A stretch of 62,563 bases of DNA, the filler included, from Asterionella formosa (taxonomy: Eukaryota), in the NCBI GenBank assembly GCA_002256025.1. It is 5 parts of 5 records of this genome, joined end to end, with 100 filler letters (N's around TTAATTAATTAA, not from the genome) between each part and the next. Parts side by side here need not be neighbours in the genome. Positions count along the whole stretch, not along the records: positions 1 to 28,448 come from NKIB01001224.1; 4 more parts are not named here. One strand, written 5' to 3'. The notes below the pieces were generated by a model. That model was given only the letters and a program-made list of their open reading frames with translations, was not told the DNA's origin and made no database searches. Each line of letters begins with the position of its first letter. Position 1 is the first letter of the stretch. A program made the position numbers and the translations under genes. This document shows, piece after piece, positions 1,077 through 41,506 of this stretch.

Positions 1077-1940
1077 ATGGTCACAACACTCTTATTGATA
1101 GACGTCCAGAAGGACTTCCATCCTGGAGGATCGCTAGGTATTCCATCAGCTAGCGAAGATGCTGAACGAATCGCGAAACTGATTGCTACTCATGGCAGTA
1201 AAATCGACAGGATTGTCGCCACTTTGGACTCGCATCATAAGCTGCACATTGCACATTCGTGCTTTTGGTTCGACGGGCTTGGACAACACCCAGCGCCATT
1301 CACGATCATTTCTACCGCTGATCTTGAAGCGGGAAAGTGGAAACCTCGAAGCGATTTGCGTTGGGACCAATACCCACTGGACGCTGTCGTGTTTGCCGGA
1401 GCGCAGGAACTCATGAAAGGGGACGGGACATTGAACCTTGACAAGTATGTATTAGAATACTCCAAGCGTCTAGAAGCAAAGGGACGCTTTCAGATATGTA
1501 TTTGGCCGGAACATTGTCTCATCGCCACGAATGGACAAGCGACTGTAGATGTTGTCCGGGACGCGGTTGACAATTGGTCCAATTTGACAGGAGGGACAGT
1601 AGAATTCATCATGAAGGGACAGCACCTTTTGACTGAGATGTATTCAGCTCTCGAAGCGGATGTTCCCGTTTCGCAGGAAACTGCGTTCAACGAAAACCTA
1701 CTGCAATCCTTGCTCAAGGCCGACAAACTGTTAGTATGTGGCCAAGCATTGAGCCATTGTGTCAACTACACTCTCAGGGATATTGTATCACATTGGCCCA
1801 AGGAAGGACTTGGAAAAATTGTTTTACTCACAGATTGTGCTTCTTCAGTTCCTGGGTTTGAAGTGGCTGCAGACCAATGTAAAATTGATATGGAGAAAGC
1901 TGGGATTCAATTAAAAAAGGCTGAAGAAATTTTTAGTTGA
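1077..1940 (+). CDS. Nicotinamidase/pyrazinamidase (isochorismatase-family cysteine hydrolase)
   Basis: Motifs LLLIDVQKDF, LDSH..LHIAH, WPEHC, KG...EMYSA and GQALSHCV (catalytic D/K/C). First in-frame ATG is at 1077. Confidence 0.88.
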   Translation: MVTTLLLIDVQKDFHPGGSLGIPSASEDAERIAKLIATHGSKIDRIVATLDSHHKLHIAHSCFWFDGLGQHPAPFTIISTADLEAGKWKPRSDLRWDQYPLDAVVFAGAQELMKGDGTLNLDKYVLEYSKRLEAKGRFQICIWPEHCLIATNGQATVDVVRDAVDNWSNLTGGTVEFIMKGQHLLTEMYSALEADVPVSQETAFNENLLQSLLKADKLLVCGQALSHCVNYTLRDIVSHWPKEGLGKIVLLTDCASSVPGFEVAADQCKIDMEKAGIQLKKAEEIFS

Positions 1941-1992
1941 TCGAATTAGATGTGATGCACATTATCTATCAAACTAAATTAGTTCTTTCAAA

Positions 1993-4191
1993 TTACGTTG
2001 CTCCCGTTACATCATTAGTGAGAGAAGCAAATGATGTGACCCGAGCAATAGCTAGCGATCCCACTTGCCAATGACGTTCGCCTCTATACCTCCGTGCAAT
2101 CATTTTCAATTGTGGCATTGAAATCCTTACATGCTCCAACGCACGAGAAAGTTGAATCAAGCATTCTTCCAAATGTTGCCATTTGTACCCAGTTCCAACG
2201 GCAAGACAATCTGCCCAAAGTGGCTGCAGCCCCAACGTTTGCTTCGCCAAGACAATGACACAAGCAGCAATCAAAGATGGGCGGAAATTGAGATACAATG
2301 GCGTCTGTAGGGCCAATTCAGAGAGAAAGGAAATCATGGAATCCATCAATCCATCGTCAACAGCGATTTTGGCGATGTATGCATGAGAGAAACTGGAGAT
2401 AGAAGGTATTGCAAGACCGAATTTGAGGTTCTCTAGAATGAAACGAAGACACACGTCAACGTCTTTGGTTTCAAATGTGTTGTCCGAAGAGAAAGTCAGA
2501 TCTCTGGCACTTACTGCTACAGAGTTGGGATCAATCTGACTCGCCAAGAGGAAGCAGGATCCCAGAGCTAGCTGGTGTCGCTCCCATGGTATTTCTCCGT
2601 AGGCAGCGAGAAAAATCTCAAAGTAGCCCATTGCCTGAAAGACCGCCTGTCGGCTGACGGAACAAAGGACTTCCGCCATCTCAAACAGCCAATCTGTCAG
2701 TGCTGCCCATTGGTAATCATCCACATGATATCTAGTGGGGTCAGGAGAAGCGCACAATCTCTCTTGTGCCAATAATCTTTGAATCTGGCACGCTGCAAGA
2801 TCATGTGGCATTTTGTGACTTCCAGGTTTTCCACTAAGAAAACGATGCTCGAGTGTTTCTCTAGGATCCATTCGTTCCGCAATATTCGGATGCAGCAGCT
2901 GCTGGATGAAATCAATACCTTCTTCATCCAACATTGGAATTTCTCTTTTGAGAAAGGCACGAAAAGTGGTGTTTGTTTCAATTGAGCTGCCAACGAAGTT
3001 GTGAATTTGCTTCAATAGACATGCAGTGGATCTAGCCGAAAAAAGGGGAACACCGCACCGAGCAATTTGAGCGCAGATGCAGCCGAGGGCCCACATATCA
3101 GTTTTAGAATCAACATGGTGAGTATTCTGGAGCGAATCAGGAGATCTACAATGCAATTGGCTTTTTTCCGATCGAAATGAACCTGAACGCATATGCAATG
3201 GACAAGCAAGACAGAGAGAGTTCCCATCATCGGTAACAAAAATAGATTTGGGACAGAAATCTCCATGAAAACCATGTCGGCAGTCCGTCCATGGATTAGA
3301 ATTGTCATAAATCGCGATGATTGCAGTGCATAAATCTCGCATCCAGCATTTCAGGGTCGGCAATGGGATCGGTAGTACTGTGGGAACTCGTCTGAGGTTT
3401 GGATTCACACAATTTACGGAAGTATCGAACCAATCTTGCAGGGAATGTTTGGTCGGGCGATACCAGGTCAATAACTTCGCGCCTTGGATATCCACTCCAA
3501 TAGGCAATGATATGCAGTAAGTATTTTCATGTGCATCCATGAATGATTCCCCCATGATCAAATGAGCCGCCTGAAGTTCCCGAAGTTGTTCGGTGCATCC
3601 GATGGCCATATCCCTCGTCTTCATCGTATACACCTTATTTGTGGCCCGATCTCTCATCGTATAGATTAGCTCACCATGAGGACGTCGCTCGATTGCTCCT
3701 ACCTTCACGAAGCCTACCAAAGAACTCTGAACTCCAGTGGCATGAGAGGTCGATATATCCTTCCATGCTGATAATCTATAGTTCTTTCCTGAGCCGTCAG
3801 CTTTCGACCAAAGCACGACCGAATTGGCCATTGTTTTCCAGATTTTGCAAACACAAGAAATGCTCCGAAAAGTGTTTCCATCTACTTGCGCATTCGCTGA
3901 TGAAACAATGAACGTCATGATATAAAGAAGCAAATCATCAGCCAATACGCTCATAACATTTGTTGCACTACATTTCGATGTTGCAAATGTCACTTCGTTA
4001 CTGCTTTGATTCTGTTCAACGACGCTATCACTAGGCTGATAATATCTATTCAAAAGTTCCGACTTCGCCTTTTTGTGCCGCTTGATATTTCTTGTTGAAG
4101 GGTCCCGTTGGTTTTCCAAATTTCGACACCTTCGAAGGGGTCTACCAGTGACGGAGAGAGACTGATCGCTGCAGCTGTTGGGAGAGAACAT
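1993..4191 (-). CDS. F-box + CDK-like (pseudo)kinase + cyclin N/C fusion protein
   Basis: F-box LADDLLLYIMTF...ISCVCKIWK...LW. Kinase remnants YTMK, EQLREL, HGD, RSPD, DMWALGCI, RMDPRETLEHRFL. Cyclin box WAALTDWLFEM, HQLALGSCFLLAS, PSLIAAC. One uninterrupted ORF; first ATG is at 4191. Confidence 0.85.
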   Translation of the reverse strand: MFSPNSCSDQSLSVTGRPLRRCRNLENQRDPSTRNIKRHKKAKSELLNRYYQPSDSVVEQNQSSNEVTFATSKCSATNVMSVLADDLLLYIMTFIVSSANAQVDGNTFRSISCVCKIWKTMANSVVLWSKADGSGKNYRLSAWKDISTSHATGVQSSLVGFVKVGAIERRPHGELIYTMRDRATNKVYTMKTRDMAIGCTEQLRELQAAHLIMGESFMDAHENTYCISLPIGVDIQGAKLLTWYRPTKHSLQDWFDTSVNCVNPNLRRVPTVLPIPLPTLKCWMRDLCTAIIAIYDNSNPWTDCRHGFHGDFCPKSIFVTDDGNSLCLACPLHMRSGSFRSEKSQLHCRSPDSLQNTHHVDSKTDMWALGCICAQIARCGVPLFSARSTACLLKQIHNFVGSSIETNTTFRAFLKREIPMLDEEGIDFIQQLLHPNIAERMDPRETLEHRFLSGKPGSHKMPHDLAACQIQRLLAQERLCASPDPTRYHVDDYQWAALTDWLFEMAEVLCSVSRQAVFQAMGYFEIFLAAYGEIPWERHQLALGSCFLLASQIDPNSVAVSARDLTFSSDNTFETKDVDVCLRFILENLKFGLAIPSISSFSHAYIAKIAVDDGLMDSMISFLSELALQTPLYLNFRPSLIAACVIVLAKQTLGLQPLWADCLAVGTGYKWQHLEECLIQLSRALEHVRISMPQLKMIARRYRGERHWQVGSLAIARVTSFASLTNDVTGAT

Positions 4192-4344
4192 TGTGGGCCG
4201 AGGGCTAGGCTGCGTGTTTTTCTTCGTCTTGTTTGGTGCTCTCAATCTTGTTTTGATTTTTGACGAATTACCGGTCTACTCGTCATTTTTTGATGCTCTT
4301 TTTCTTTGTTGATTGAGGGCTGTTCGCTATCCACTTTGACTGTG

Positions 4345-4499
4345 TTTGAATTTCAAATTGCGGTTAATATACCGGTATATAAAGGCGCACGTCGAATAAC
4401 ACGAGGTGGAAAACGAGTTATTAACCGTTAGTGTTACTCAGACCATAACAACAAGGTTTTATAACGCTTGCCGTCACGAGTACTCCAATCCCAACCGTT
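4345..4499 (-). promoter_or_regulatory. CHR (TTTGAA) and MSA-like (AACGG) cell-cycle promoter elements upstream of the cyclin fusion gene
   Basis: TTTGAA at 4345-4350 and TTCAAA at 4352-4357. CCGTT at 4425 and 4495. The 14-mer CAATCCCAACCGTT at 4486-4499 is identical to 41775-41788 upstream of CDC20. Confidence 0.55.
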
Positions 4500-4510
4500 G
4501 CTAGCAGGGT

Positions 4511-7409
4511 TAGGGTTCAAATGCAGGAATCGTGGAAGGAGGAACATAAATATATCTTATCCAGGTATCTTATGATGATATACATCTTTCAATTACCCGT
4601 ACGTATATCATATGGAATTATTCTTTAGTCTGCAACAAGGAGGGTCATCCTTACACTAATAACGACAGTATGCATTCATACAATCTCTGTATATGAAACA
4701 TTCTATGTAGACATTTTGCTTTCATAAATACTTCTATTGTGAGCTTATAAAACTAGAGATAAATTTACAATAAATTCAAGTCCATTTATTTCAGATCAAG
4801 TTCGAATCTTTTGCCCAAGCTTTCATAAAGATAACCAAGTAAGGATAATGTTCTGTACTTAATCATTCAATCTTTCTTTTAATACTAGAGTGCTAGTAGG
4901 GTGTAGATAAGGATAGACTGTTATCCTGGTACCAGGATCTCATCGGTGTCTGAATGAAGATCATGTATTATTCCACCAGTAGCCTTCCAGCAGGTACGGC
5001 TGTGAGGACGTTTCACAGTAACAGTACCGTACCCTGGTGGTATCATGATACAGTGCATTTTCCCATCACCTGTGGTACGTCATACCACAAAGAATGCATG
5101 ACAAGAAAAATGGTTTTGCTTGATTGGGCTGCATACTGGCTGCTGTGGATGTTGACAAGATGATAACAGCAAATCTTGTGAATGGTGATAACAACACATG
5201 GAGCAGTCCTCGTGACAGATGGAAATTTGCATCGTTATGTCTTTTATGGCAGGTGCGTCATGTAGGCCAATGGTTATTTGAAAAATCGAATATTTTTATT
5301 TTTGTGACCACCCTCCTTCGATGGCTGAACCTCATTGGCTTGCAAGACGGTTTTTTGCAACATAGGTCCATCACGGTTGCTGTTCTTGTTAATGATAACA
5401 ATAAGTCCCTGTTGTGAATCAAGGAGCAGCAGATGCATAGCTAGCTTAACCACGAGACTATAAAGTGGATATTTGTTAATTCAATTCCTATGAATATATA
5501 GTAGTGAACAAAAGTTTGTGCTCCTAAAATATGGTGACATCACTCAGCCATGGGACCAGCACATTCTCTTCCAAATGTATCCATCTGCACCTGACAACAT
5601 CCTTCCACTACAGCATTACCAAATTATTTTAGTCCCTGAACATCATTTTGATGGCTCAAAGATCATCACAAGAAACTAGGAAATAGTTTTCCTCATTCAT
5701 GCCTTCTATAAATATTTTCATATTGCATTTTCTAAAAATGCACTTGAACACTGTGCCTGCTTCAGAAAAAGTTTATAAAAGAAGACGGATGATAGGACAT
5801 TCCAGCAATGACAATCAACAACAATGACTTTGAGGATCATGATAACTTTGACACCAGCCTCAATGGTGGGCTTACCTTCTCCATCACCATCTTTGCCTTT
5901 CTGACAAGAATCATTGAGGACACCACCAAAGCTCTATCCTCCAAATGGATTATTCTCTCCAAACTCTACCATAGAGGATTGGATGGAGTGGAGTAGTCAA
6001 ATTATGTTGGGATTATTAAATGCTGCGATGTTTTTTTGGTTTGATAATGATACAGCAATTAATGTATTGAAATGGTTTTGCTCACACAGCCCATGCATCA
6101 CGCCAGAATTTTGATACATGGATCCAAATCAATTTGAGTATGAAGGTAAATGTGGTTACTATTTCATACTAGCATATATCATAACAAGCTACTATTGATA
6201 AATACATTGATTCTTATGTAGAAAGATATAATCGAAAGAAAAGGCCAGTGCAGAACGACAAACAACGACGGAACAAGCGATCAAAATTGACCATGGAAGC
6301 GATCAAATCGGAAATCCGACAATTAGTATCTACAATCACATTCAGTGTTTCACTGTTATACTTACCGATCCGCTATAACAACAAGCGTAACATGCAGCAG
6401 ACAACGGGATCTTAAGGAAGTCGAAAGTTCCTTTTGCAAGCCCGAATTGAGCAACGGCAGGCAGGATAGAGTGGGCATTATAATCGTGAGAACGAAATCG
6501 GGCATATGTAAAATTTATGAATATGTGAAGCAAATAATTTAACATAATAGTCTTGGAAAGATAATACAAAGTCTTCATTAAAGTTTAGCTTAAACCATGG
6601 GTGGTTATTTTTAGTATCACGTACGTACATAGGCTAAATGACTAGAGTATCAGTTAAGTATCACATACATCACCGGAGCAATAACTTGCCGCCAACATCA
6701 GATGTATCGATATTATCAATATGGATGATAGCGACTGCATGAATCCATCGAAAAGACAAGCAAGCCAACATACAACTGCATCCGTTTGACAACAAGAAAT
6801 TGCTACTGGTGTCATCAATGAACTAATTTCGCTTCAGACTGGGCATGATGGACGATGATTGGCATATAATTGTTCATTCAAAGAATTGGACAACGCGACT
6901 ACATGCATCCCAAGAAAAGACAAGCAAGTAATAATCCAACAACCTACCGCATCCATTTGACAACGAATCGCTACTGGTGTCATCAATGAACTCATTTCGA
7001 TTTAGACTGGGCATGGTGAAAGTGAATTCCTGTAGTCTGTTTTCAGGCGACAAACAAAATCAAGGTGAATACTAGATATCATTTAATCAAATCTGTAGAG
7101 TATCTACTATGGTTTCCTTATCTAGACCCCTTGCCGATTTCGGCAAGGGGTCGGCAATCCCAGGGCTTGAAAGAAACCGAGGGGCAATTGGCGTCAGTTG
7201 CCTTGCCAAAATGCTAACACATGAAATTTACAACATATATTTTAATGATGGGCAATATCGGACCTTTGGCAAGATTTTACGTTAAGATAGGAAATAAAGG
7301 AAATAGATTTTGCATGATGGGCTATAGTAAGCTAAAAATGACATTTGTGTTTATATGTGGGCAATAGGTAAGCGAATGGCGCGACGATAGCTAGCTTGTG
7401 AATTGCCTT
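4511..7409. mobile_element. Composite of decayed transposon sequence ending in a TIR-like end
   Basis: No credible ORF. 6190-6306 is the reverse complement of 28549-28640. Internal direct repeat at 6750-6850/6913-7020. The end at 7388-7409 is the reverse complement of 54774-54795. Boundaries are approximate. Confidence 0.55.
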
Positions 7410-7748: not shown

Positions 7749-8608
7749 ATGCGAATGCGATTATTGCTATCAGTTGCATCCCTGACCGGATCCGCCTTTG
7801 CCAAATCGAACACGTCAGCCTTTGTATTATCGTCTATAGGAAACCTAGAGGCTCGAGTTGCTTCACTTAGCACTTCCACAACGTCTCAACTATACATGAC
7901 AATTGATCCCGAATATCCTGGCACTGCCGTCGAGCGCATGCTGGCCGTGCGAGACCGCGTCAAGAAGTTAGCGGAAACGGATGTGTTCAATGGGAGATGG
8001 GAAGACGTGAGGAAAAAGATTTTGTGGTGTGGTGGTCTCAAAGACTTGCCTGACGCACTCCCAGGTCAAGGGTATACCGGGCATTCCTTTAACGACTTTA
8101 ATCACGTCGATTTGACTGCTATGAGAGATGTCGAGTCTGATAACCAAAATGAAGGAAGGGTACGTTGTCGCTGCTGACCTATTTCTATTTCAATGATCAT
8201 GTCGAAACTCATCGTCAAGCACGTGTGTATCTCTATCTTCCATGCCAGGTCGCTGGAATCGCCTATGGAAATCCACTTGGGAATGGAATTCGCTTAGCAT
8301 CGCTTCCAGAACTCGGTCCTGGTGGCTCATGGTCCACTTGTGCCATGGGTTGCAACAAGGACCCTCCAGTTGACGTAGCACATGTGCAGTTTAGGTCCAG
8401 AATCGCCTTCAAATTAGTCTGGGTCCCTAACGAGCAATACGACACGTTTGTGCTCGTAGACGACGATGGCGACCTTCTTGCCAAGGGAACACCATCAAAT
8501 GGTCCAGAGGGCCTTCCTTCGTTGCGAGAAAGACAGCAAAACTTCCTGATCGTTAAGGGTTCCAAGTATGCAAGAGAAGCGGCTGCATTGGCAAGAACCG
8601 TTGAGTAA
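7749..8608 (+). CDS. Uncharacterized plastid-targeted protein, 2 exons (7749-8159, 8249-8608)
   Basis: A phase-0 GTACGT...CCAG intron at 8160-8248 joins two ORFs in frame. Signal peptide followed by GSA|FAK, an ASAFAP-like motif. Confidence 0.8.
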
Positions 8609-14350: not shown

Positions 14351-17300
14351 ATGTCGGGCCCACCGCCACCGCCGCCGCCACCACCACCTCCGCCGCCACC
14401 TCCTCCTCCTCCTGATCGACGAGTTGGGATGCGTCCTCCTCCAGGACTAACCGCTCCTCCAGGAATGGCGCCTCCGGGAATGCACGCTCCTCCCGGAATC
14501 TTTCAGCATTCCTTTCAGCCTCCGCCGGGATTTCCTCCTGGCATGTACACTCAAGGAGGACCTCCTCCACCGCCACCGCCGGGAATGGCTCCCCCCGGAA
14601 TGATGCCGCCTCCGGGAATGATGACTCCTCCAGGAATGATGCCGCCTCCGGGAATGATGCCGCCTCCGGGAATGATGCCGCCTCCGGGCATGTCGTATGC
14701 TCCTCCTGGGATGAGCACACAGAGGCCGCCTCCCATGTCACAGCAACAGGCGACGCCTATGGTAACTGCGGGATTGCAAACTATCTCTCTGGAAGAAAAG
14801 TCAAAGCGATGGGCCAAGCTTCAGAAGAAGAGATATTCACACAAGCGTCTCCAGACATTTAGTGCTCCGCAGAAGGAGCAAATGCCACCGGACTTCTTGC
14901 GAAAGATTCTGCAGGACCATGGCGACATGTCCTCGAAACGCTATCAAACAGAGAAACGTCTATACCTAGGTGCACTTAAGTACGTTCCGCATGCATTGTA
15001 CAAACTATTGGAGCACATTCCTATGCCATGGGAAAACTACAAGGAAGTTCCTGTCTTGTTTCATGTCACTGGGGCCATTTCATTCATTGATTCAACACCC
15101 AAGGTTATTGAACCCATTTACCGCGCTCAATGGGGAACTGCGTGGTTGTTAATGCGTAGGGAGAAGCGTGATCGCAGACATTTCAAGCGCATGCGCTTTC
15201 CTCCATTTGACGACGAAGAACCACCATTGGACTATGCCGACCACTTGTTGAATGTTGAACCTAGTGAAGGGATTCGCTTGGATTTAGAAGATGAACAATA
15301 CGCGCTGATCAAAGATTGGTTCTATGACAACATGCCATTGAGTGATATTAGGCAAACACGCGAAGAACCTCTCTCAAAGCATGTTTTTTGTAATGGACCG
15401 TCTTATCAGACATGGCGCTTGAGTACAGATATCATGGGACAGCTATACGGACTAGCCGAACCCCTCCTCAACGCATTTGATGACAATGTACGATACCTAT
15501 TTGATGTGCCACACTTTTTAACAGCCAAGGCATTGAATGTGGCCATTCCCGGTGGTCCAAGGTTTGAACCACTCTTCAGAGACTTGGATGATGATGAAGA
15601 CTGGAATGATTTTAATGATATCACCAAGTTAATCATTCGATTGCCCATTCGAACGGAATATAAAATTGCGTTTCCTCATGTGTACAACTCCAGACCACGG
15701 AAGGTCAAGCTATCTCCATACCATCATGTTCAGAATAACTTTGTTGGTGACGAAGATGACAATGATGTCATGTGCTGGGAAGCATATCCTTCACAACTCA
15801 ATCCAATTGTGAGAGTGGATAAAAAGGTGTATGTTGGAAAGGACGATGATGAATTCGCAGAAGAACTCCCTATGGTGGGGGAAAGTGAAGATGGTGACGA
15901 CTTCTGGGATGTTGACGAAGCTGATTGGAACGAAGATGACGAAATTACTGTGGTTGAGTCGTTGACTCCATTGTTGGAGGTAGCACCACTGGGAACTAGT
16001 CGCACATCGGCTGGAGTTTCCTTATACTTTGCTCCTCATCCTTTCAATACTCGATCTGGTCGAACGAGGCGAACTATTGATGTGCCCTTGATCGGTCACT
16101 GGGTGCGTGATCGAGTTTCGCGAGATCTTAATTATCCTACAAAGGTTCGTGTTTCATATCAGAAACTTTTGAAAGCTTGGGTGTTGAATCAGCTGCACTC
16201 AAAACCATACAAGAAGAAGTGTAAGAAGGCCCTTTTCAAATCGCTAAAGGGAACCAAATTCTTTCAATGCACTGAACTGGACTGGGTGGAAGTTGGCCTT
16301 CAAGTATGCCGTCAGGGTCATAACATGTTAAACTTGCTAATTCAGCGAAAGCAACTCAAATATTTGCACTTGGATTACAATTTCAACTTGAAGCCAACAA
16401 AGACATTGACAACTAAGGAGCGTAAGAAGTCTCGATTTGGAAACGCTTTCCACTTGGTTAGAGAAATTCTAAGATTGACAAAGTTGATTGTTGACTGCCA
16501 TGTGCAATTTCGTCTCGGAAACGTTGATGCTTATCAATTGGCTGACGGCTTGCAATATACTTTCAATCACGTGGGCCAGTTGACTGGGATGTATCGATAC
16601 AAATATCGCCTCATGCGTCAAATTCGAACCTGCAAGGATTTGAAGCACTTGATCTACTATCGGTTCAATACTGGACCCGTCGGGAAAGGACCAGGAGTGG
16701 GATTCTGGGCACCGAGTTGGCGTGTTTGGATGTTCTTCTTGCGGGGAATTTTACCTCTCTTGGAACGATGGCTTGGGAACTTGTTGGCTCGCCAGTTTGA
16801 AGGCCGTCACTCAAAATCGGTTGCGAAGAATGTTACCAAACAGCGAGTGGAATCTCACTTTGATCTCGAGTTACGAGCTTCTGTAATGCATGACATTTTA
16901 GACATGATGCCAGCAGGCGTAAAGCAAAACAAATCGCGAGTCGTACTCAGTCACTTGAGTGAGGCTTTCAGATGTTGGAAGGCCAACATCCCTTGGAAGG
17001 TGCCAGGCATGCCGGCTCCGATTGAAAATATGATTTTGCGTTATGTTAAATCGAAAGCTGATTGGTGGACGAACATTGCACACTACAACAGAGAGCGTAT
17101 TAAGCGCGGTGGAACAGTCGACAAGACTGTCGTCAAGAAAAATCTTGGTCGTTTAACTCGTCTGTGGCTCAAGGCCGAACAGGAACGTCAGCACAATTAT
17201 CTCAAGGACGGTCCATATGTATCCGCGGAGGAAGCTGTCGCGATTTACACCACAACTGTTCATTGGCTGGAGAGTCGAAAGTTTACTCCAATCCCGTTTC

Positions 17301-20300
17301 CTCCATTGTCGTACAAACACGATACAAAGTTGTTAATCTTGGCACTTGAACGCTTGAAGGAGGGCTTCGGGTTGCAAATCCGCCTGAATAGTGGCATGAG
17401 AGAGGAGTTGGCTTTGATCGAACAAGCTTATGATAATCCTCATGAAGCCTTGAGCCGAATCAAACGACACCTCTTGACTCAACGTACCTTCAAGGAAGTT
17501 GAAATCGAGTTCATGGACATGTATTCTCACCTCTCGCCTGTTTACAATGTGGAACCCTTAGAAAAGATCACTGATGCATATCTCGACCAATACCTTTGGT
17601 ACGAAAGCGACAAGCGCCATCTCTTTCCCAGCTGGATCAAGCCTGCTGATTCAGAACCACCGCCATTGCTTGTTTACAAGTTCTGCCAAGGCATCAACAA
17701 TCTCGAAGATATTTGGGACGCAGACGAGAACGGGGAAAGCGTTGTTCTCCTTCAATCACAATTCGAGAAGATGTATGAGAAGATCGACTTAACATTGTTG
17801 AATCGATTGCTTCGACTTATTGTTGATCATAATATCGCTGATTACATGACCGCAAAGAACAATATAAGCATCTCATTCAAAGACATGATGCACACAAACG
17901 GATATGGATTGATTCGAGGTCTTCAATTTGCGTCGTTTATTGTTCAATACTACGGCCTTGTGCTCGATCTCTTGACTCTTGGTCTCTCCCGTGCTAGCGA
18001 GATTGCCGGACAACCTCAGCGGCCGAACGAATATCTCACTTTTGAAGACATTGAAACAGAAACGAGTCATCCTATCCGGTTATACACACGGTACATGGAC
18101 AAGATTTACATGTTATTTAAGTTTGACGCCATAGAAAGCAAGGATCTCATTCAGAGATATCTTATCGAGCATCCTGACCCTAACAACGAAAATGCCGTCG
18201 GTTACAGAAACAAGAAATGCTGGCCTCGGGATTGTCGAATGCGCCTTTTAAAGCGAGATGTCAACTTGGGTAGAGCTATCTTCTGGGATATCAAGAATCG
18301 CTTACCTCGAAGCATATCTTCTCTTGACTGGGACGATTCATTTGTCAGTGTTTACAGCTCAGACAATCCAAATCTTCTTTTTGACATGAATGGTTTCGAA
18401 ATTCGTATTCAGCCAGTTCGAGCTTCTCGAAAAGCTGTTATTGGTGGTCATTCAGCTGCATCGACACCTGCATATAAAGATGGAGTGTGGAATTTACAGA
18501 ATGAAACCACAAAGGAGATGACGGCACAAGCGCACCTAAGAGTTGACGACGAATCTGTCCTGGCGTTTGATAACCGCATTCGGCAGATCTTGATGAGTAG
18601 TGGAGCCACGACTTTTACTAAAATTGCTAACAAGTGGAACACCGCTCTCATTGGTCTGATGACTTACTACAGAGAAGCAGTTCTGAATACCCAGGAACTT
18701 CTTGATTTATTGGTGAAAAACGAGAACAAGATTCAAACAAGGATCAAAATCGGTTTGAACAGTAAAATGCCGAGTCGTTTTCCTCCAGTTGTCTTCTATT
18801 GCCCAAAGGAGCTTGGAGGCCTCGGCATGCTTTCCATGGGCCACGTCTTGATTCCGCAGAGCGACCTTCGTTATTCTAAGCAAACTGATACTGGAGTCAC
18901 TCACTTTCGCGCAGGCCTCAGTCACGATGCCGATCAGCTTATTCCGAATCTGTTCCGATACATCCAACCTTGGGAAAGCGAGTTTGTTGACTCCCAGAGA
19001 GTATGGGCTGAATATGCGCTCAAACGCCAAGAAGCGAACGCGCAGAACAGAAGATTGACACTCGAGGATCTTGAGGACAGTTGGGACAGAGGTATACCAC
19101 GCATCAATACGTTATTTAGTAAGGATCGGCACACCCTAGCATATGATCGCGGTTGGAGAGTTCGCACAGTTTTCAAGCAATATCAAGTCCTCCGTGTCAA
19201 TCCATTCTGGTGGACGCATCAGCGTCACGACGGGAAGCTTTGGAACCTCAATTCGTACAGAACTGACATGATCCAGGCCCTTGGTGGAGTTGAGGGTATT
19301 CTTGAGCACACTTTGTTCAAGGGAACTTACTTTCCCACGTGGGAAGGTCTTTTCTGGGAGAAGGCATCTGGTTTCGAAGAGAGCATGAAATTCAAAAAGC
19401 TGACGAATGCTCAACGGTCCGGTTTGACCCAGATTCCCAATCGACGTTTTACGCTGTGGTGGTCGCCGACCATCAACCGAGCCAATGTGTATGTCGGCTT
19501 CCAAGTGCAGCTCGACCTCACTGGTATCTTTATGCATGGTAAGATTCCAACCTTGAAGATTTCTTTGATTCAGATCTTTCGAGCCCATTTGTGGCAAAAA
19601 ATTCATGAAAGTATTGTCATGGATATTGTTCAAGTATTTGATCAAGAGCTCGACGCTCTCGAGATCGAGAGTGTGCAAAAAGAAACAATTCACCCGCGTA
19701 AATCGTACAAGATGAACAGCAGCTGTGCTGATTTGGTTCTGTTCGCTGCTTACAAATGGCCAGTTTCAAAGCCTAGCTTGCTTCACGATACCAAGGACGA
19801 CTTTGATGGCGGCAATACTACCAATAAGTTTTGGCTCGATATACAATTGCGTTGGGGTGATTTTGACTCTCATGACATCGAGCGCTACTCCAGGGCTAAG
19901 TTCCTCGACTACACAACCGACAACATGTCAATCTATCCTTCGCCGACTGGATGCCTGCTTGCGTTTGATTTGGCTTATTCCCTATACAGTGGATTTGGAA
20001 ATTTCATTCCCGGAGGCAAGCCCTTGCTGCAGCAGGCCATGGCAAAGATTATCAAAGCCAACCCAGCACTGTATGTTTTACGTGAACGTATTAGAAAGGG
20101 GCTCCAGCTCTATTCTAGTGAGCCCACAGAGCCATATCTCAGCTCACAAAATTACGGTGAATTGTTCAGCAACCAAGTCATTTGGTTCGTGGACGATACA
20201 AATGTGTACAGAGTTACAATTCACAAAACCTTTGAAGGTAACTTGACTACAAAGCCGATCAACGGCGCTATTTTCATTTTCAACCCAAGAACTGGGCAGC

Positions 20301-21892
20301 TTTTTTTGAAGATCATTCACACTAGTGTCTGGGCCGGACAAAAGCGTTTGTCGCAGTTAGCCAAGTGGAAAACAGCTGAAGAGGTTGCTGCACTAATCCG
20401 GTCCCTCCCAGTTGAAGAACAACCAAAACAAATCATTGTCACACGTAAGGGAATGCTTGATCCATTGGAAGTGCATTGTCTTGATTTCCCAAACATTGTC
20501 TTGAAGGGTTCAGAACTCCAATTGCCGTTTCAAGCCGCCCTTAAGGTTGAGAAATTCGGTGACCTAATTCTTCGAGCGACTGAACCTCAAATGGTACTTT
20601 TCAATATATTCGATGACTGGCTAAAGAGTATCTCGTCTTACACTGCCTTCAGTCGGTTGATTTTGATCCTCCGAGGACTTCACGTGAATGTCGATAAGGT
20701 TAAGATGGTTCTGAGACCTGATAAAAGTGTGGTGACTGAGCCACATCACATCTGGCCCACGTTGTCGGATGAGCAGTGGATCAAGATTGAAGTTGCCCTG
20801 AAGGACTTAATTTTGGCTGATTATGGGAAAAAGAACAATGTCAATGTTTCAAGTTTGACTCAGAGCGAGATTCGAGACATTATTCTCGGTATGGAGATTG
20901 CTCCACCATCTGTTCAGAGGCAACAGGTTGCAGAGATCGAGGCTCAAGCTCGCGAGCAGTCTCAACTGACGGCCACGACAACCAAAACCACCAATGTCCA
21001 TGGGGAGCAAATTGTGGTCACTACAACCAGTCAATATGAAGCTGCTACATTTCACAGCAAAACTGATTGGCGTGTGCGCGCTATCAGTGCCACGAATCTG
21101 CATCTTCGTACAAAACACATTTATGTATCGTCAGAAGATATTTCAGAAGACGGCTTGACGTATGTCCTCCCAAAAAATATCCTAAGCAAATTCATAACCA
21201 TTGCTGACTTGCGAACGCAGATTTCAGGCTATCTATACGGTGTTGCACCTGCCGATAATGATCAAGTCCGTGAGGTCCGTTGTATCGTGATGGTCCCTCA
21301 AGTTGGAAATCACCAGACAGTGACACTTCCAAGGAAGCTCCCCGACGATGATTTACTGAAGGACATGGAGCCATTGGGTTGGATCCACACGCAGCCAAAC
21401 GAGTTGATTCAAAACGGTGTTCAAATCTTACCTGCTACTGACGTTTTGACTCATTCGGCAATCATGTCCGAAAACCCCAAAACTTGGCAGGGCAAGGATC
21501 AGATCATCATCACCACGTCATTCACTCAAGGGTCGTGTTCCCTTACGGCGTATCATGTAACGGAAGCGGGCTTCGCTTGGGGAGCGAAGAACCGAAACGT
21601 CGCTGGTGGGGTGGCTAATGCTGAAGGGTATTCGTCTAGTTGTTTCGACAAGGTGCAGATGCTTCTCAGTGACCGATTCAAGGGGTACTTCATGGTCCCC
21701 CAAGGTGGCCTGGGCTGGAATTACAACTTCCAAGGCGTCAAGCATAGTGCTGGAATGGATTATTCTCTGAAAGTGGATATGCCAGAACCATTCTATGCTG
21801 AAGTTCATCGTCCTCAGCACTTTTTGTCCTTTGTCCAGATGGAAGAAGCCGTAGAGACGGAGGATACAGACCTACAGAACTTCCTTGATTAA
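14351..21892 (+). CDS. PRP8: Pre-mRNA-processing-splicing factor 8 (U5 snRNP)
   Basis: Hallmark blocks [51 protein letters not shown], and the C-terminal [12 protein letters not shown]. Intronless, with a Pro-rich N-terminus. Confidence 0.99.
14560..14710 (+). repeat. Coding 18-bp tandem repeat (MMPPPG)n in the PRP8 N-terminus
   Basis: Repeated GGGAATGATGCCGCCTCC-like units. Confidence 0.85.
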
Positions 21893-24833: not shown

Positions 24834-26940
24834 CTAACCGAATTTTCGGCTACTGAAATCCACTGATCGTCCAGTGATGAGAACGAAAAAATCGATTAAA
24901 AAGCCTCTCCACCAAGTTCTAACAGACATTTTGTAAGTCTCGATCGAATCAGCAAAGGTACGAGGGAGCATAATATCGTTTCTGCCAAAGGCATACTTGC
25001 TTGTATTGGCCCGTCCGTCAGCGATGAGTTCCGAAGCGACAGGACGATTCAGACTAGCCTTGGCCGCGACTAGCGTATCATTTGGAGTACTGGTCATCAC
25101 CTCTGATTCGTTGTAAGTCAAGGGCATAACAAGATTTGAGCCTCTTGACGCTGCAGATCCAAAAGCAATGAAGCGGTCCAAAGTGCTTCCTCCGAGTTCC
25201 AGATTCATGCCTCGCACCAGGTTAGAACACCTCAAACAGAATAAAAGATCCCGTGATTGTCCTTCCATGAATTTATTAAATGCAGAAGGTGAAAATGCAT
25301 CTCCTCCATATTTTTCTTTCAAATGCTTCATCATCGCTTCTCTAGCTGACTTCCCCATGGCGGTACCTAGCTTGACGTTTCCCAAGGGAGAATCGTAACC
25401 CACCAACGACGATGGGATTCGATAAGTCAGCATCAATCCCATAAGGTCGAGATAGTTATCGGGAAGACCCAGACCACTGATTCCTTTCATTGCTTGTTGA
25501 TCGTTGCCATTGACAAGACCAGCCCAAAGATTGCAATAACTCGATCGAAAGGTTTCATCAAGACGACGATACATCCCATGGTCCAAAAGAACAATGTCAA
25601 ACTCTCCTTTTGTGAACCTTGGTCTGATGAATATATTCCCTGGGTGAGCATCAGCATAAACAAATCCGTGCACCATCATGAGTTCCGCAAATAGAGAGCA
25701 AGCAGCTGCGGCAACCATTTTTGTCGAGATCCCATGCTCAGCCAGTCTTGCCTTGTCAGTAATGCGAAAGCCTTCTTCGAATGACATTGTTAACATTTTT
25801 GATGTTGTGAGGTGGCTAAATGTATTCGGGACAATTGTCTCTGGTGGTTTGGGCGTGGACCCAGTGATGGTGTAAACGAGCGTTTGGAGAAGTGATATGT
25901 TTGTAGACAATGGGACACCTTTGAGCATTCGCTTTGCGCGCTCGGCATTTCTGGCTTCCTGAGTGAAGTCTAGCTCTGCAATGATTGTTTTATGGAATTC
26001 AGGGCTATAAAAGTGGCAAAGAATGAGTGACAACCGACGAAAATGAAAATGTCAAGCTCAAGCTGGATGGTGAATAACAACACACTTACAGCATCCAATC
26101 AAAGCCAGCCCCGGGGAAAGCTCTTTCTATTGCACGGGACAAGAGACTCAACGCTGCCATGTCCGCTTTTGTTGAGGCATCTAAATTTGGTCGCTGAACT
26201 TTGAGCGCAACTTTTGTTCCATCTTTCAGTGTTGCCGCGTGCACCTGGGCAAGGGAAGCAGACCCCAGTGGAACGAACTCGATATCGTCAAAGACCAGCT
26301 CCCACAATGGTCCCTTCTGGTGGCTTTGATTTGGATATATGGTGCGTAGTTCTTGTTCAATGCATTTCAGGACCTGATCAATTTCCAGTGGAGCACATTC
26401 ATCTTGTAGCGGTTTTAGGGCCTCGACATATTCCGTCGGGATGAACCCACCAGAAGTTGTCGCAATGTATTGTCCCAATTTTACCAACAAGCCTCCGTGT
26501 GTAGTGCAAGCTTCGTGTAGTGACTTTGCGTGCCTCGCATGCACTTTGTGTAGATCCTTGTCCTTGTCAAACATACCATGAAACTTGTATTCTAGCATAG
26601 CGCTGGCTGATCGAGTGAGCACGTCCAGGAACCTTGCCGCCACCATCGCCTTGACCTTGGTATCGGTGAGAGTCGATCCAGCAGCCTCGTTGAAATTCCT
26701 TATGCTCCATCGAAGCTCTTTGCCTGTCGCGTCAAGGATACGCTCGGCAGTATCCTGATCGGTCGAATGAATGGAGCGGTCGATCACGACAGAATCAGAC
26801 TGAGAATCTACCAGTTTGTTTGCTGCCTTTTGAATCTTCTCTTCTCTCAGCCTTCTTGATTCCAAGTTAATCGAATAGACCGAAGCACCCGCCAACGCAG
26901 TGGAAGCAGCGATGGCTGAAAGTTTTCGAGCTGTCATCAT
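24834..26940 (-). CDS. ABC1/UbiB (ADCK)-family atypical kinase, 2 exons (26940-26090, 26004-24834)
   Basis: KxGQ (VKLGQ), LQD, GSASLAQVH, VALKVQ, ELDF..EA, ADAHPGN, LDHG. GTAAGT...TAG intron at 26005-26089. Confidence 0.92.
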
Positions 26941-39640: not shown

Positions 39641-41506
39641 TTAACGAACCGTAGCCGTCCCAGGGCATTGAAAGTCGCCGATCAAGAAGTTCTCGCGTCG
39701 TTTGGACTGAGGAGGTGGTCCGAATATATCCCAAAATCGGAGTGTCTCGTCTGCGCCGACCGAAACCACCGAGCGGCCATCCGGACTCATTTCCATGTTC
39801 AACACACGAGCAGTGTGAGACTTAAACTCTTGAACCTTAGTCATAGTTGGGTATTTCCAGAGAATTAGCTGATTCTCACTAAATCCGTGAGATGAGCAGA
39901 GCTCACGCTGATGCTTGGACCAAATGATGGAGCAAACTTGTGACCCAGTATCAATCGAGTTGGTCATGGTACCAGCGACTGTATTCCAAAATTTGATGGT
40001 TCGATCAGCTGTGCCACCTCCACTTGCCAAAAGGCTCCGGTTGAAGGGACACCAATCTAATGCCTTCACAGCTGCCTTGTGCTGTGTCAGGAGAAAACGA
40101 GGCGCCACAACGTTGGCATCTTGCGAAGCTCGATCACGACCATTGTTTCGTCTCGACATTGCAGCGTCCCAAATGCAAAGGTAATTCTCATTTCCACCAC
40201 TGGCAAGTGCATGGCCATCATCGTTCCACTTCAAACCACAAATTTCTTGCCGATGGCCCTTGTATTGTCCGACGACATGGCTTCCGACCCTTACGTCATG
40301 TTGCAAAATTTGAGAATCGCGGCCACCAGATGTCAACCAATTCTTGCTGGGATTCCAAGTCATAGAACTCACTCGGTTTGAATGTCCTTGAAGTTTTCGG
40401 ACCATTTTTTGCTCTTGTGTGTCCCAAAGTTGGATGACGTTGCTGCTTGTTCCAATTGCCAAGTACTTTGTGTTTCCAGGAATTGTCGACCACGACACGC
40501 TTGATACATAGTCATTGGCACCATTTAAGGTTACTACATGGCCAATTTCTCCAGATATAGCATTCCAAAGGTATACACTCGGTCCCATTGCAACAGCGAG
40601 AATGTTGTCTTTGCTCCATGAGATGAGATTTAGATAGTAGTCGTCAACAATATCAGGGGCATCCAGAACTTTTGTGGGTTTCTCAGAAATTTTTCGCTTC
40701 GATGCTATTGAACTGGTTGGCTTGTCGGCATATTCTGATTCTCCATTGCAGGTTGCTGCTCTCTGGAGTACTTGAAGGTGATTATGTTGGAACGGATCAA
40801 CACGTGGTCGGACCGATCGAGATTCGTCGTGGCAGTTAAATCGAAAGGTTCTCTTAGGTCCTCTCAGGCTTCTTTCAAAAGGAGCAAAACCCTGCAAAGA
40901 ACCATCGACTTCGTCTTCTAGCTCAGGAATGGATGCATATGCAATATGGGAAAGGTCTTTGCGGCATTGTGCCCTCTGAATTTCGGACTTGAGGTTAGGT
41001 GAAATGATACTCAAGAGGGATCCACCAACGTTGATGTTTTGAGAAGTTGACAAGGTATCTGGATTCTTCTCTGGTAATGCTACATCTTCAAAATATTCGA
41101 GAGGAAGATCGTGGAGAGCGGCACCCATTGCCCGACGAAATAACGCTTGATCAGCAGTTTCGATGACAGGTGAAGCAGGTGGCGATTCAATTTGACTGGA
41201 AGGTGGTGTGAGTCCCATACGCAGCGATTTTTGGCGCTCAAGAACTTTTGGTGTAAGCTCGATTCTTCTCCTTTCAGCCACTTGAATGTTCGCGCTGATT
41301 AGGTTTACATCCATGCTGGACCGAGAAGGTATGTACCGATCGGAGAAAGAAGGCGAAGCTGTTGATCGCTTATTGCTCGAAGAAGCATTTCCATTCAGAT
41401 TCTTTTTTGGTGTTGATGTCAAGGGCAAGTCCAAGCCGCGACGACTTGGTGTATGACATAATGATACAGATCCTCGTCGTCTGTTTGGTGTTGATGGTGT
41501 CGTCAT
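39641..41506 (-). CDS. CDC20: APC/C activator CDC20 (fizzy family)
   Basis: C-box DRYIPSR, VLDAPDIVDDYYLNL, WD40 repeats, LASGGGTADR, ELCSSHGFSENQL, and a C-terminal VR (IR-tail variant). Confidence 0.95.
   Translation of the reverse strand: MTTPSTPNRRRGSVSLCHTPSRRGLDLPLTSTPKKNLNGNASSSNKRSTASPSFSDRYIPSRSSMDVNLISANIQVAERRRIELTPKVLERQKSLRMGLTPPSSQIESPPASPVIETADQALFRRAMGAALHDLPLEYFEDVALPEKNPDTLSTSQNINVGGSLLSIISPNLKSEIQRAQCRKDLSHIAYASIPELEDEVDGSLQGFAPFERSLRGPKRTFRFNCHDESRSVRPRVDPFQHNHLQVLQRAATCNGESEYADKPTSSIASKRKISEKPTKVLDAPDIVDDYYLNLISWSKDNILAVAMGPSVYLWNAISGEIGHVVTLNGANDYVSSVSWSTIPGNTKYLAIGTSSNVIQLWDTQEQKMVRKLQGHSNRVSSMTWNPSKNWLTSGGRDSQILQHDVRVGSHVVGQYKGHRQEICGLKWNDDGHALASGGNENYLCIWDAAMSRRNNGRDRASQDANVVAPRFLLTQHKAAVKALDWCPFNRSLLASGGGTADRTIKFWNTVAGTMTNSIDTGSQVCSIIWSKHQRELCSSHGFSENQLILWKYPTMTKVQEFKSHTARVLNMEMSPDGRSVVSVGADETLRFWDIFGPPPQSKRRENFLIGDFQCPGTATVR

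Follow-up and report, generated by a model that had tools for sequence, protein, structure and literature searches.

An F-box, a CDK-like pseudokinase and a double cyclin fold in one protein chain of Asterionella formosa

The fusion gene and its surroundings

The DNA analysed here, which we call the window, is a stretch of 62,563 nucleotides from Asterionella formosa. On the minus strand, positions 1993..4191 hold an ORF, stop codon included, for a fusion protein of 732 aa. All 732 codons are read through without a break. RNA-library contigs from three studies span the whole ORF collinearly with 0 joints; thus, there is no intron. One poly(A) RNA contig by itself covers positions 1135-4273, with 0 differences from the genome sequence. 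These data agree with the preliminary description of the locus, which had read it as one intron-free ORF with three modules. That description had also asked for a single transcript to be confirmed. Here, the answer is partial: the contigs are collinear over the ORF, but neither strand nor single-transcript status can be read from them.

RNA-library contigs are still present upstream of the ATG, and we assign positions 4192..4280 (minus strand) as the probable 5' UTR. The upstream limits of the contigs are at positions 4273, 4280 and 4260, the last with a loose end, and none was placed on positions 4356-5200. Contigs cannot show true RNA ends. Hence, these limits were not taken as evidence for a transcription start.

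The neighbour of the fusion gene is a convergent isochorismatase-like gene (positions 1077-1940, plus strand). The stop codons of the two genes are separated by a 52-base intergenic gap (positions 1941..1992), which is bridged by RNA contigs. Such a bridging contig is no proof of one shared transcript. In one RNA library, contig depth was 1276 for the neighbour and 7-9 for the fusion ORF, depth not being a measure of expression. Algae, lake water and freshwater are the labels of the RNA runs in which the fusion gene occurs.

Domains of the fusion protein

The protein carries an F-box, a CDK1/2-like pseudokinase and an A/B-like double cyclin fold in one chain. With the protein alone, Pfam returned significant matches to Cyclin_C (1.1e-13, residues 597-706), Cyclin_N (2.8e-9, residues 496-593) and Pkinase (8.5e-10, residues 339-452, C-lobe only). 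The F-box-like match (residues 106-130) was sub-threshold, with E=0.022 and 15.0 bits against a cut-off of 24.3. Thus, the proposed kinase and cyclin domains were detected directly, whereas the F-box was recovered by a family profile. The full-length AF2 model has a pLDDT of 81.7 and a pTM of 0.83, consistent with a fixed domain arrangement. The N-terminal region (aa 1-78, positions 3958..4191, minus strand) is basic (KRHKKAK) and predicted to be disordered, with pLDDT <50 at residues 1-74. It is also the least conserved part of the protein (29-45% identity to orthologues, 14 of 78 columns invariant).

The F-box spans aa 79-132 (DDLLLYIMTFIVS...VCKIWKTMANSVVLW; positions 3796..3957, minus strand) and is assigned from the family profile and predicted helices. 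In the AF2 model, the helices are at residues 85-92, 105-112, 116-122 and 125-131, with pLDDT 83-93, and a 7-residue insert (consensus SGxVDG) separates helix 1 from helix 2. The profile was built from 30 aligned N-terminal stretches of fusion relatives. Against the PDB, its best match was the F-box of Skp2 (E=1.9e-7), followed by weaker matches to beta-TrCP, FBXW11, FBXW7, FBXL3 and others. Only 2 of the 42 PDB rows at E<=10 were clearly not F-boxes (IL-18 receptor). Hence, the F-box of the preliminary description is borne out at the level of the family. The Pfam F-box-like cut-off was reached or exceeded in 12 of 36 selected relatives, and E<=0.1 was obtained for 20 of the 23 members of the clade alignment. 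Among the core residues, compared in 20 sequences, W128 is invariant and V114 and W118 are nearly so. A total of 25 of the 54 F-box columns are invariant among orthologues. The usual Leu-Pro start of an F-box is absent from the A. formosa protein, which has LADD instead. Given the sub-threshold score, the insert and the missing Leu-Pro start, SKP1 binding may be weak or absent. C-terminal to the F-box lie protein-interaction domains, here the pseudokinase and the cyclin, as is the case in F-box proteins.

The CDK1/2-like pseudokinase (aa 158-455, positions 2827..3720, minus strand) was located by profile, Pfam C-lobe and structure matches. It belongs closest to the CDK1/2/3/5 group. A search with the single protein found CDK5 (2.3e-8), and the family profile matched CDK3, CDK2, CDK1 and CDK5 over the entire kinase domain (1e-70 to 1e-64; 3e-67 for CDK2). 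Residues 136/158-460 of the AF2 model superimpose on CDK1/CDK2 with Z 25 and rmsd 2.8-3.1 A over 259-266 residues. Of the canonical catalytic motifs of an active CDK, the beta3 Lys (K191, VYTMK) and the alphaC Glu (E205, LREL) alone are retained. The catalytic loop reads H309-G-D311-F-C313-P-K-S316 versus HRDLKPxN, the DFG position is C330-P-L and the T-loop Thr position is R340. There is no Gly loop (GxGxxG) in the pseudokinase domain sequence. The kinase motifs are therefore all present as first listed. D311, at the position of the catalytic Asp, is shared by two orthologues (HGD) and is Asn in the other two of the four (HGN). The CKS-binding GDSEID stretch of CDKs is replaced by SARSTA. With this stretch changed, the protein may not use any known mode of docking.

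The cyclin A/B-like double cyclin fold occupies aa 490-716 (Cyclin_N 496-593, Cyclin_C 597-706; positions 2044..2724, minus strand), as judged by Pfam and structure. Residues 463-721 of the AF2 model match cyclin A2 with Z 31.9 and rmsd 2.1 A over 252 residues. By sequence search, the domain found cyclin A2 at 2.4e-17 and cyclin F at 1e-8. The Lys of the cyclin-box 'ASK' motif is replaced by Q552 and the helix-5 Glu by L582, confirming both losses noted earlier. In human cyclin A, these conserved CDK-contacting residues are K266 and E295. In all five rows of the A. formosa clade, the Lys is Q and the Glu is L, R or C. For the other 55 rows listed in the cyclin alignment, Lys is kept in 44 and Glu in 50. 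The MRAIL position reads QWAALTDWLFE. The hydrophobic patch is only partly kept (W501, E504, Q540), and Q494, A497 and H539 align to M, I and L of cyclin A.

Prediction places the kinase part on the cyclin part within the chain, as in CDK2-cyclin A. Complex prediction with kinase residues 150-462 and cyclin residues 480-732 gave 0.69, and the best of 3 controls gave 0.00. In benchmarks, 51 of 78 solved complexes and 2 of 108 mismatched pairs attained that mark; among eukaryotes, so did 39 of 65 solved pairs without a like older complex and 2 of 126 unrelated pairs. Contacts agree between the prediction runs to at least 67%, and the partners have a pLDDT of 81 or more. Predicted contacts join kinase residues 195-211, 233-240 and 333-334 to cyclin residues 549-563 and 575-594. 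Thus, the kinase alphaC helix would lie against cyclin helices 3 and 5, the arrangement of CDK2-cyclin A. Because CDK2-cyclin A has already been solved, the pass may reflect memory, and it indicates likeness rather than binding by the A. formosa copy. With that reading, the packing that had been proposed for a structural check is predicted (0.69 versus 0.00 for controls). The same model alters one earlier argument. Loss of the cyclin Lys and Glu had been read as loss of CDK binding; Q552 and L582 instead lie where the cyclin part is predicted to meet the pseudokinase of the same chain.

Orthologues and the wider family

Four orthologue clusters, from other assemblies, have the same architecture and are 59-66% identical over 99% of the length. 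The degenerate motifs H306-G310, C313-P-K315 and C330-P-L-H333 are invariant in all five sequences. Among the five, identity is 64-70% in the pseudokinase (160 of 298 columns invariant) and 67-73% in the cyclin domain (125 of 227). Because the orthologues carry these same degenerate motifs, and conservation of the pseudokinase matches that of the cyclin, the gene is not in decay. Decay of this copy was the alternative raised in the preliminary description; no version with intact DFG/HRD was found among the four orthologues. That a decayed kinase is conserved as well as the cyclin argues for a structural or recognition role of the kinase fold. A profile search with the clade alignment returned, beyond the four known orthologue clusters and the protein's own fragment, eight weak kinase matches (13 proteins). 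A scan of metagenome contigs for orthologue DNA gave 291 pattern matches, with no relative among them.

The A. formosa protein belongs to an F-box/CDK-like/cyclin family found across stramenopiles, within which it has diverged strongly. A quick cyclin-domain tree (47 hand-chosen rows, 228 columns) split 41 fusion-family rows from 6 ordinary cyclins with an SH-aLRT of 100. The A. formosa clade (5 rows, 99) falls inside a 24-row clade (98) with a sequence from the diatom Ditylum, which is the nearest named relative by tree path. A scan for the catalytic-loop and cyclin-box motifs found 75 fusion proteins, of which 73 have Asn in place of the catalytic Asp. The A. formosa protein and a fragment of it make up the remaining two. 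None of the 21 HRD proteins in the scan had the cyclin motif, and DFA replaces DFG in 67 of the 69 HRN fusion proteins. Hence, the dead state of the kinase appears to be family-wide. Taken together with the missing catalytic-loop Lys/Asn, DFG and Gly loop, and with Asn for Asp in 2 of 4 orthologues, this supports the earlier proposal that the A. formosa kinase is catalytically dead.

The preliminary description knew of no described protein with this three-part architecture. That claim does not stand. Oomycete proteins with F-box-like, Pkinase and Cyclin_N/C domains are recorded as 'Cyclin-F' in UniRef and as 'cyclin-dependent kinase with F-box domain' at NCBI. Of the 120 relatives listed for one distant fusion protein (P0042), 47 have F-box(-like), Pkinase and Cyclin_N domains, by a hand count of precomputed assignments. 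In addition, CDKs with integral cyclin domains, in which the catalytic Asp is dead, were described by Judelson and Ah-Fong (2010) in oomycetes, ciliates and Theileria, with four in Phytophthora infestans, e.g. PITG_21617 (PMC3019232). The same study reported such genes as absent from two diatoms, T. pseudonana and P. tricornutum (PMC3019232). The F-box is unmentioned in that paper (0 occurrences; PMC3019232). In a search of openly available papers, it was the one description of the family, and we found no account of an F-box on kinase-cyclin fusions and no functional study. The architecture is thus already known in the family, of which the A. formosa clade is the most degenerate form.

Proposed role and comparison with known systems

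We lean, by a modest degree, towards a gene product that is non-catalytic, imitates an assembled CDK-cyclin complex in a single chain bearing an F-box, and would hence be a putative SCF receptor. On this reading, the F-box (79-132) would attach the protein to SKP1 in a ubiquitin ligase of the SCF (SKP1-CUL1-F-box) type. The pseudokinase (158-455) and cyclin domain (490-716) would pack, via alphaC and cyclin helices 3 and 5, into a rigid recognition module. This module could show surfaces, such as the partly kept hydrophobic patch, to substrates or regulators that recognise CDK-cyclin. Proteins captured in this way would then be ubiquitinated. We infer SKP1 binding, ligase function and the capture of CDK substrates or inhibitors from the domains present. 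An extension of this reading to the A. formosa clade and its sister paralogues seems distinctly unlikely. These would be a diatom-lineage radiation of CDK-cyclin decoy E3 receptors, each with a dead CDK (in some paralogues, the N-lobe only) joined to a cyclin, so as to offer SCF the surface of a complete CDK-cyclin pair. Without any kinase activity, ubiquitination would then reach proteins that recognise this surface, such as CDK inhibitors, Wee1/Myt1-type kinases, Cdc25-type phosphatases or RxL substrates.

Other readings turn on the same evidence. The protein could be a stoichiometric decoy or scaffold without ligase function, which sequesters regulators or substrates, the F-box-like helices capping the N-lobe or controlling the protein's own turnover. 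The sub-threshold F-box, with its insert and without its Leu-Pro start, is what such a protein might show, and a suggestion by Judelson and Ah-Fong that the cyclin domain might regulate fusion stability points the same way (PMC3019232). However, we regard this reading as unlikely, given that W128 is invariant, and V114 and W118 nearly so, in 20 sequences, that 25 of 54 F-box columns are invariant and that the significant family-profile matches are all F-box proteins. It is more doubtful still that the cyclin domain serves in trans as the activator of another, active CDK, with the pseudokinase as a regulatory lid and the F-box timing destruction. The fold is very near that of cyclin A2 (Z 31.9, rmsd 2.1 A) and distant family members retain the conserved Lys and Glu, but both residues are replaced in 5 of 5 sequences of the A. 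formosa clade. Moreover, the CDK-binding face is predicted to be filled by the protein's own pseudokinase, which, being tethered to the cyclin, would be at very high local concentration.

An atypical active kinase, working by a non-canonical mechanism through K191, E205 and D311, is highly improbable. In its favour, all five orthologues keep the beta3 Lys and the alphaC Glu, and three of them have D311. Against this, the Gly loop, the catalytic-loop Lys/Asn and the DFG Asp are gone, and the residue at D311 is Asn in the other two and in 73 of 75 scanned fusion proteins. We found nothing in favour of an assembly or annotation artefact, or of a decaying pseudogene derived from fused neighbour genes. 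The chance of either is negligible in view of the uninterrupted ORF, the four full-length orthologue clusters, the collinear RNA contigs and the high conservation of all three domains.

Returning to the putative SCF receptor, few pseudokinases are fused to the partner that regulates them, and this family unites three core cell-cycle modules, SCF docking, CDK and cyclin, in one chain. It ranges over oomycete pathogens of plants and animals, relatives of brown algae, and diatoms. Within it, the A. formosa clade shows how far a kinase can decay while being conserved like the cyclin. Provided that the SCF link holds, these proteins would offer a route of cell-cycle proteolysis specific to stramenopile lineages, and a natural case in which substrates are captured by imitating an enzyme complex.

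Kinase and cyclin folds also share one chain in giant viruses. In Nucleocytoviricota clusters, Pkinase is listed for 100% and Cyclin_N for 93% or 65%, with no F-box listed; this candidate likeness comes from an ESM Atlas feature score of 0.93. The oomycete-type fusions match the A. formosa protein in the order F-box, CDK-like kinase, Cyclin_N and Cyclin_C in one chain. They also share an unconserved catalytic Asp, and cyclin domains that form one clade apart from ordinary cyclins. They differ in having a near-canonical kinase, with HRNLKPKH, DFA and a TLWYRPPE-like segment, and the distant members P0041, P0042 and P0047 keep the EID motif. The A. formosa clade, at 22-33% identity to them, has lost the Gly loop, the catalytic-loop Lys/Asn and DFG. 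In the cyclin domain, the oomycete-type proteins retain an xRAxLVDWL patch together with the conserved Lys and Glu, both of which are replaced in the A. formosa clade.

Animal cyclin F (CCNF) likewise has an N-terminal F-box and a cyclin box without CDK-activating function (PMC6792013). It forms an SCF module via the F-box, without a CDK partner, and its cyclin domain serves substrate recognition (PMC6792013). Unlike the A. formosa protein, which has a 300-residue pseudokinase between F-box and cyclin box, cyclin F has no kinase there. The cyclin domain of the A. formosa protein is closer to cyclin A2 than to cyclin F. Hence, the likeness to cyclin F is probably convergent, and the shared name does not mark orthology. 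For annotation, the database name 'Cyclin-F' is misleading, since it suggests an orthology to the animal protein that the fusion proteins do not have.

The CDK inhibitor p27 is a substrate of the SCF(Skp2)-CKS1-CDK2-cyclin A assembly. There, an F-box protein, a CDK and cyclin A act as one ubiquitination platform, a precedent for the proposed role: Skp2 has been solved together with SKP1, CKS1, cyclin A and CDK2 (PDB 7b5l), and with its N-terminus on cyclin A (7luo). That platform consists of separate chains, contains an active CDK and requires CKS1; the A. formosa protein is one chain, with a dead kinase and the CKS motif lost. Were the diatom radiation of decoy receptors true, these proteins would be a hard-wired, single-chain counterpart of Skp2-CKS1-CDK2-cyclin A, and cell-cycle control in stramenopiles would have a further layer that has gone unrecognised.

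Anatomy and conservation of the fusion protein

The fusion-protein gene is a single uninterrupted ORF of 732 codons on the minus strand (1993..4191). Taken alone, the window protein matches Pfam Cyclin_C (residues 597-706, 1.1e-13), Cyclin_N (residues 496-593, 2.8e-9) and the C-lobe only of Pkinase (residues 339-452, 8.5e-10). An F-box-like match at residues 106-130 is sub-threshold (E=0.022; it scores 15.0 bits, where the cut-off is 24.3). The top match among PDB sequences is cyclin A2 (2.4e-17, residues 494-709), with values of 1e-8 for cyclin F and 2.3e-8 for CDK5 (residues 305-453). Every anatomical detail of the preliminary description that we checked was right. The kinase keeps its Lys and Glu (K191 within VYTMK, E205 within LREL). 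The catalytic loop is degenerate, with H309-G-D311-F-C313-P-K-S316 in place of the CDK HRDLKPxN. DFG is lost, C330-P-L standing at that position, and so is the Gly loop (no GxGxxG). In alignments, Q552 replaces the cyclin-box Lys of '(I/L)ASK' and L582 the helix-5 Glu. Judged by its residues, the kinase is incapable of canonical catalysis.

The three-part chain is conserved. Protein searches returned four orthologue clusters, which align over 99% of the length at 66, 63, 64 and 59% identity and share the Pfam trio, together with a fragment of the window protein itself that is 708 aa long. The degenerate motifs are invariant across the orthologue alignment (H306-G310, C313-P-K315 and C330-P-L-H333); at D311, two of the four orthologues carry Asn instead. 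By part, identity to the window protein is 29-45% in the N-terminus (14/78 columns invariant), 56-61% in the F-box (25/54), 64-70% in the pseudokinase (160/298) and 67-73% in the cyclin (125/227). Hence, the dead kinase is constrained about as tightly as the cyclin.

The fusion gene was found in RNA-library assemblies of three studies, in runs whose labels are algae, lake water or freshwater. A 3141-base poly(A) contig matches 1135-4273 with 0 differences and 0 gaps, spanning the convergent neighbour gene too. No joints were seen inside the ORF in any RNA run compared. These collinear contigs, which give neither strand nor single transcript, fit an unspliced mRNA. Contigs over 1135-4280 from three lake or freshwater metatranscriptome runs (X3, X4 and X7) are 95-99% alike to the window, with scattered single-base differences, and therefore represent close variants of the fusion gene in several freshwater data sets. 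The 121-aa protein P0040, whose first 44 residues are identical to window-protein residues 80-123 and whose remainder is bacterial GldB-like (Pfam GldB_lipo 1.9e-23), is most likely an assembly chimera from public data.

With genes for PRP8, CDC20/Fizzy, Ist1 and thiamin pyrophosphokinase, the window clearly consists of eukaryotic nuclear DNA. It is gene-dense with few introns; PRP8 (14351-21892, plus strand) is a single uninterrupted 2513-codon ORF. An isochorismatase-like gene (1077-1940, plus strand) converges on the fusion gene, their stop codons 52 bases apart, and RNA contigs bridge the two, so the 3' UTRs probably overlap. The CDC20/Fizzy homologue (39641-41506, minus strand; WD40_CDC20-Fz 1e-120), an APC/C co-activator, is a second cell-cycle ubiquitin-ligase component; it lies ~35 kb from the fusion gene, not adjacent and with no sign of linkage. 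Two adjoining minus-strand ORFs (24834-25928 and 26086-26940) encode the C- and N-terminal halves of an ABC1 atypical-kinase domain, and probably belong to a single gene that an intron or frame change interrupts at ~25929-26085. A 142-aa ORF without Pfam match (7749-8177, plus strand) has a signal-peptide-like start ending GSAFA, which we take to recall ASAFAP, the motif that targets proteins to the plastid in algae with secondary red plastids.

The wider family in databases and literature

The architecture had been put forward as undescribed. In fact, the family is already in public databases, and a 2010 paper described its kinase-cyclin part. Judelson and Ah-Fong (2010; PMC3019232) describe four CDKs of P. 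infestans whose C-termini carry Cyclin_N/C, the fusions being verified by RT-PCR and all having Asn for the subdomain VIb Asp. They place relatives in other oomycetes, Paramecium, Tetrahymena and Theileria annulata, and state that T. pseudonana and P. tricornutum yielded no CDK-cyclin fusion. 'F-box' has 0 occurrences in the text of that paper. For diatoms, Huysman (2010; PMC2872877) reports, among cell-cycle genes, seven 'hypothetical CDKs' whose cyclin-binding motifs diverge; 'fusion', 'fused', 'SCF' and 'Skp' are absent from its main text. The literature searched gave no account of an F-box on these kinase-cyclin proteins and no functional study.

A search with P0042, a distant oomycete-type member, returned oomycete records with precomputed PF12937, PF00069, PF00134 and PF02984 (Albugo, Phytophthora, Peronospora, Saprolegnia, Aphanomyces, Pythium, Bremia and Lagenidium). 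By our count from the table, F-box(-like), Pkinase and Cyclin_N coincide in 47/120 of the P0042 matches listed. UniRef names these proteins 'Cyclin-F'; NCBI submitters use 'cyclin-dependent kinase with F-box domain' (Achlya, Thraustotheca) or 'protein kinase domain, F-box domain...' (Plasmopara). The nearest ESM Atlas cluster (0.96; Pkinase 100%, Cyclin_N 98%) is also oomycete 'Cyclin-F', in agreement with the named records. Kinase plus cyclin occurs elsewhere in Choristocarpus, Discosporangium, Chrysoparadoxa, Tribonema, Phaeothamnion, Hondaea and Durusdinium, and in the diatom Ditylum brightwellii (P0008). Public names for the family are misleading; it is known but functionally uncharacterised. 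Two giant-virus (Nucleocytoviricota) clusters in the ESM Atlas (~550 aa, Pkinase 100%, Cyclin_N 93% and 65%, feature scores 0.93) indicate that kinase-cyclin fusions may also occur in viruses of protists.

An exhaustive representative search gave 1510 proteins at E<=0.001 (14 at E<=1e-30), and the fusion architecture recurs in many long relatives. When 36 relatives, picked for an N-terminal match or long chain, were scanned with Pfam, 12 combined F-box(-like) with Pkinase and Cyclin_N at E<=0.1. The F-box, not significant in the window protein alone, is significant at family level: F-box-like reached the cut-off in 12/36 of these relatives, and E<=0.1 in 20/23 members of a clade alignment. We built a profile from the aligned N-terminal stretch cut from 30 relatives and searched it against PDB. 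The best match was the Skp2 F-box (E=1.9e-7), followed by beta-TrCP, FBXW11, FBXW7, FBXL3, FBXL17, GID2, TIR1 and others; only two of 42 rows at E<=10 were clearly unrelated, both IL-18 receptor. In the alignment, helices 1 and 2 of the F-box are separated by an insert of seven residues (consensus SGxVDG). Explicit homology of the fusion-family F-box to Skp2-type F-boxes, as drawn from these profile matches, is new here.

A profile of 20 full-length members matched CDK3, CDK2, CDK1 and CDK5 at 1e-70 to 1e-64 across the whole kinase domain. Distant members have a near-canonical kinase with Asn at the catalytic Asp. Among 272 proteins scanned, 75 carried a cyclin-box motif downstream of a catalytic-loop motif. 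Asn occupied the catalytic position in 73 of these, the other two being the window protein and its fragment. Orthologues P0003 and P0005, both with Asp, escaped the pattern. All 21 HRD proteins were without the cyclin motif. HRN fusion proteins had DFA for DFG in 67/69 cases and GxGxxG in only 2/69. Replacement of the cyclin Lys and Glu was confined to the window clade (5/5 rows); the 55 other rows printed had K in 44 and E in 50.

We made a quick maximum-likelihood tree from 228 cyclin-domain columns of 47 rows hand-chosen from the 272 proteins, rooted on six ordinary cyclins; it carries SH-aLRT support only and is limited by long branches and row choice. The 41 fusion-family rows fall on one side of a branch (support 100), making the window protein a family member. 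Oomycete 'Cyclin-F' branches earliest, then two mostly other-stramenopile groups that also include the dinoflagellate Durusdinium, a long-branched Batrachochytrium row and unnamed rows. The Ditylum sequence falls in a 24-row clade (support 98) together with several sub-families. Five rows make up the window clade (support 99), which lies within a 16-row clade (support 95) that also contains seven proteins without kinase C-lobe. New here are the placement of the window protein in a very degenerate sub-family and the sister forms retaining the kinase N-lobe only. The latter (P0009, P0011, P0012, P0017, P0025, P0027 and P0029) have an F-box, both cyclin folds and, between them, ~105-130 residues aligned to the kinase region, the remnant being the N-lobe (beta1-beta5, alphaC). 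They suggest that the cyclin-touching part of the pseudokinase is the part that matters. P0240, labelled Batrachochytrium salamandrivorans (a chytrid fungus), has the F-box, kinase and cyclin architecture. Its branch, a very long one, falls among ochrophyte sequences, and the record may be contamination or gene transfer.

Predicted packing of kinase and cyclin

An AlphaFold2 model, built on a 118-row alignment, had mean pLDDT 81.7 and pTM 0.83; residues 1-74 are disordered and the helices of 85-131 confident. Foldseek matched the model to CDK2 chains (TM 0.71 on target) and cyclin A2 chains (TM 0.88-0.89, rmsd 2.1-2.5 A). VIA-align matched model residues 463-721 to cyclin A2 (Z 31.9, rmsd 2.1 A, 252 residues), 136-459 to CDK1 (Z 25.2, 3.1 A, 266 residues) and 158-460 to CDK2 (Z 25.1, 2.8 A, 259 residues). 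Therefore, the whole kinase fold is present, including the N-lobe missed by Pfam; the window protein also has a cyclin A-like domain.

We co-predicted residues 150-462 and 480-732 as two separate chains. The score was 0.69 (best of three controls, 0.00), a pass that may be memory, since CDK-cyclin complexes have been solved many times, and that shows likeness to CDK-cyclin, not proof of binding by this copy. The mark is reached by 51/78 solved complexes against 2/108 mismatched pairs and, in eukaryotes, by 39/65 solved pairs without a like older complex against 2/126 unrelated pairs. Contact agreement between runs was at least 67% and partner pLDDT at least 81. Predicted contacts join kinase residues 195-211 (the alphaC helix, PSTAIRE position), 233-240 and 333-334 with cyclin residues 549-563 and 575-594. 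The predicted intramolecular interface is the CDK2-cyclin A face. The preliminary description read the Q552 and L582 replacements as lost CDK binding; the replacements are real, and in the model both positions lie inside the predicted interface with the protein's own pseudokinase.

Candidate roles of the chain

We lean, by a small margin of belief, towards a role as SCF substrate receptor, which agrees with the plausible mechanism first proposed from sequence, an SCF-linked CDK-cyclin mimic. The F-box would dock on SKP1-CUL1, and the rigid pseudo-CDK/cyclin body would act as substrate-recognition domain. A decoy or scaffold that works independently of a ligase would also employ such a body; it is a distinctly weaker candidate, set beside the Skp2-like F-box. 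Trans-activation of another CDK, to which the cyclin A-like fold might lend itself, is improbable given a cyclin face predicted to be occupied in cis. Of the residues that we assign to the cyclin hydrophobic patch, W501, E504, Q540 and L498 are kept and Q494, A497 and H539 changed; the CKS-binding GDSEID stretch is SARSTA. With docking surfaces so changed, the partners are not necessarily those of canonical CDK-cyclin.

An atypical active kinase, for which the retained K191 and E205 could speak, is very unlikely beside the degenerate catalytic loop and lost DFG. Decay or artefact is contradicted by the four full-length orthologue clusters, the invariant degenerate motifs and the gapless RNA contig, and we give artefact practically no credence.

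The putative substrate receptor has two parallels. Animal cyclin F likewise uses a cyclin box as recognition domain (PMC6792013). The window protein also resembles a one-chain version of the Skp2-SKP1-CKS1-CDK2-cyclin A platform, which has been solved (7b5l and 7luo, by their entry titles).
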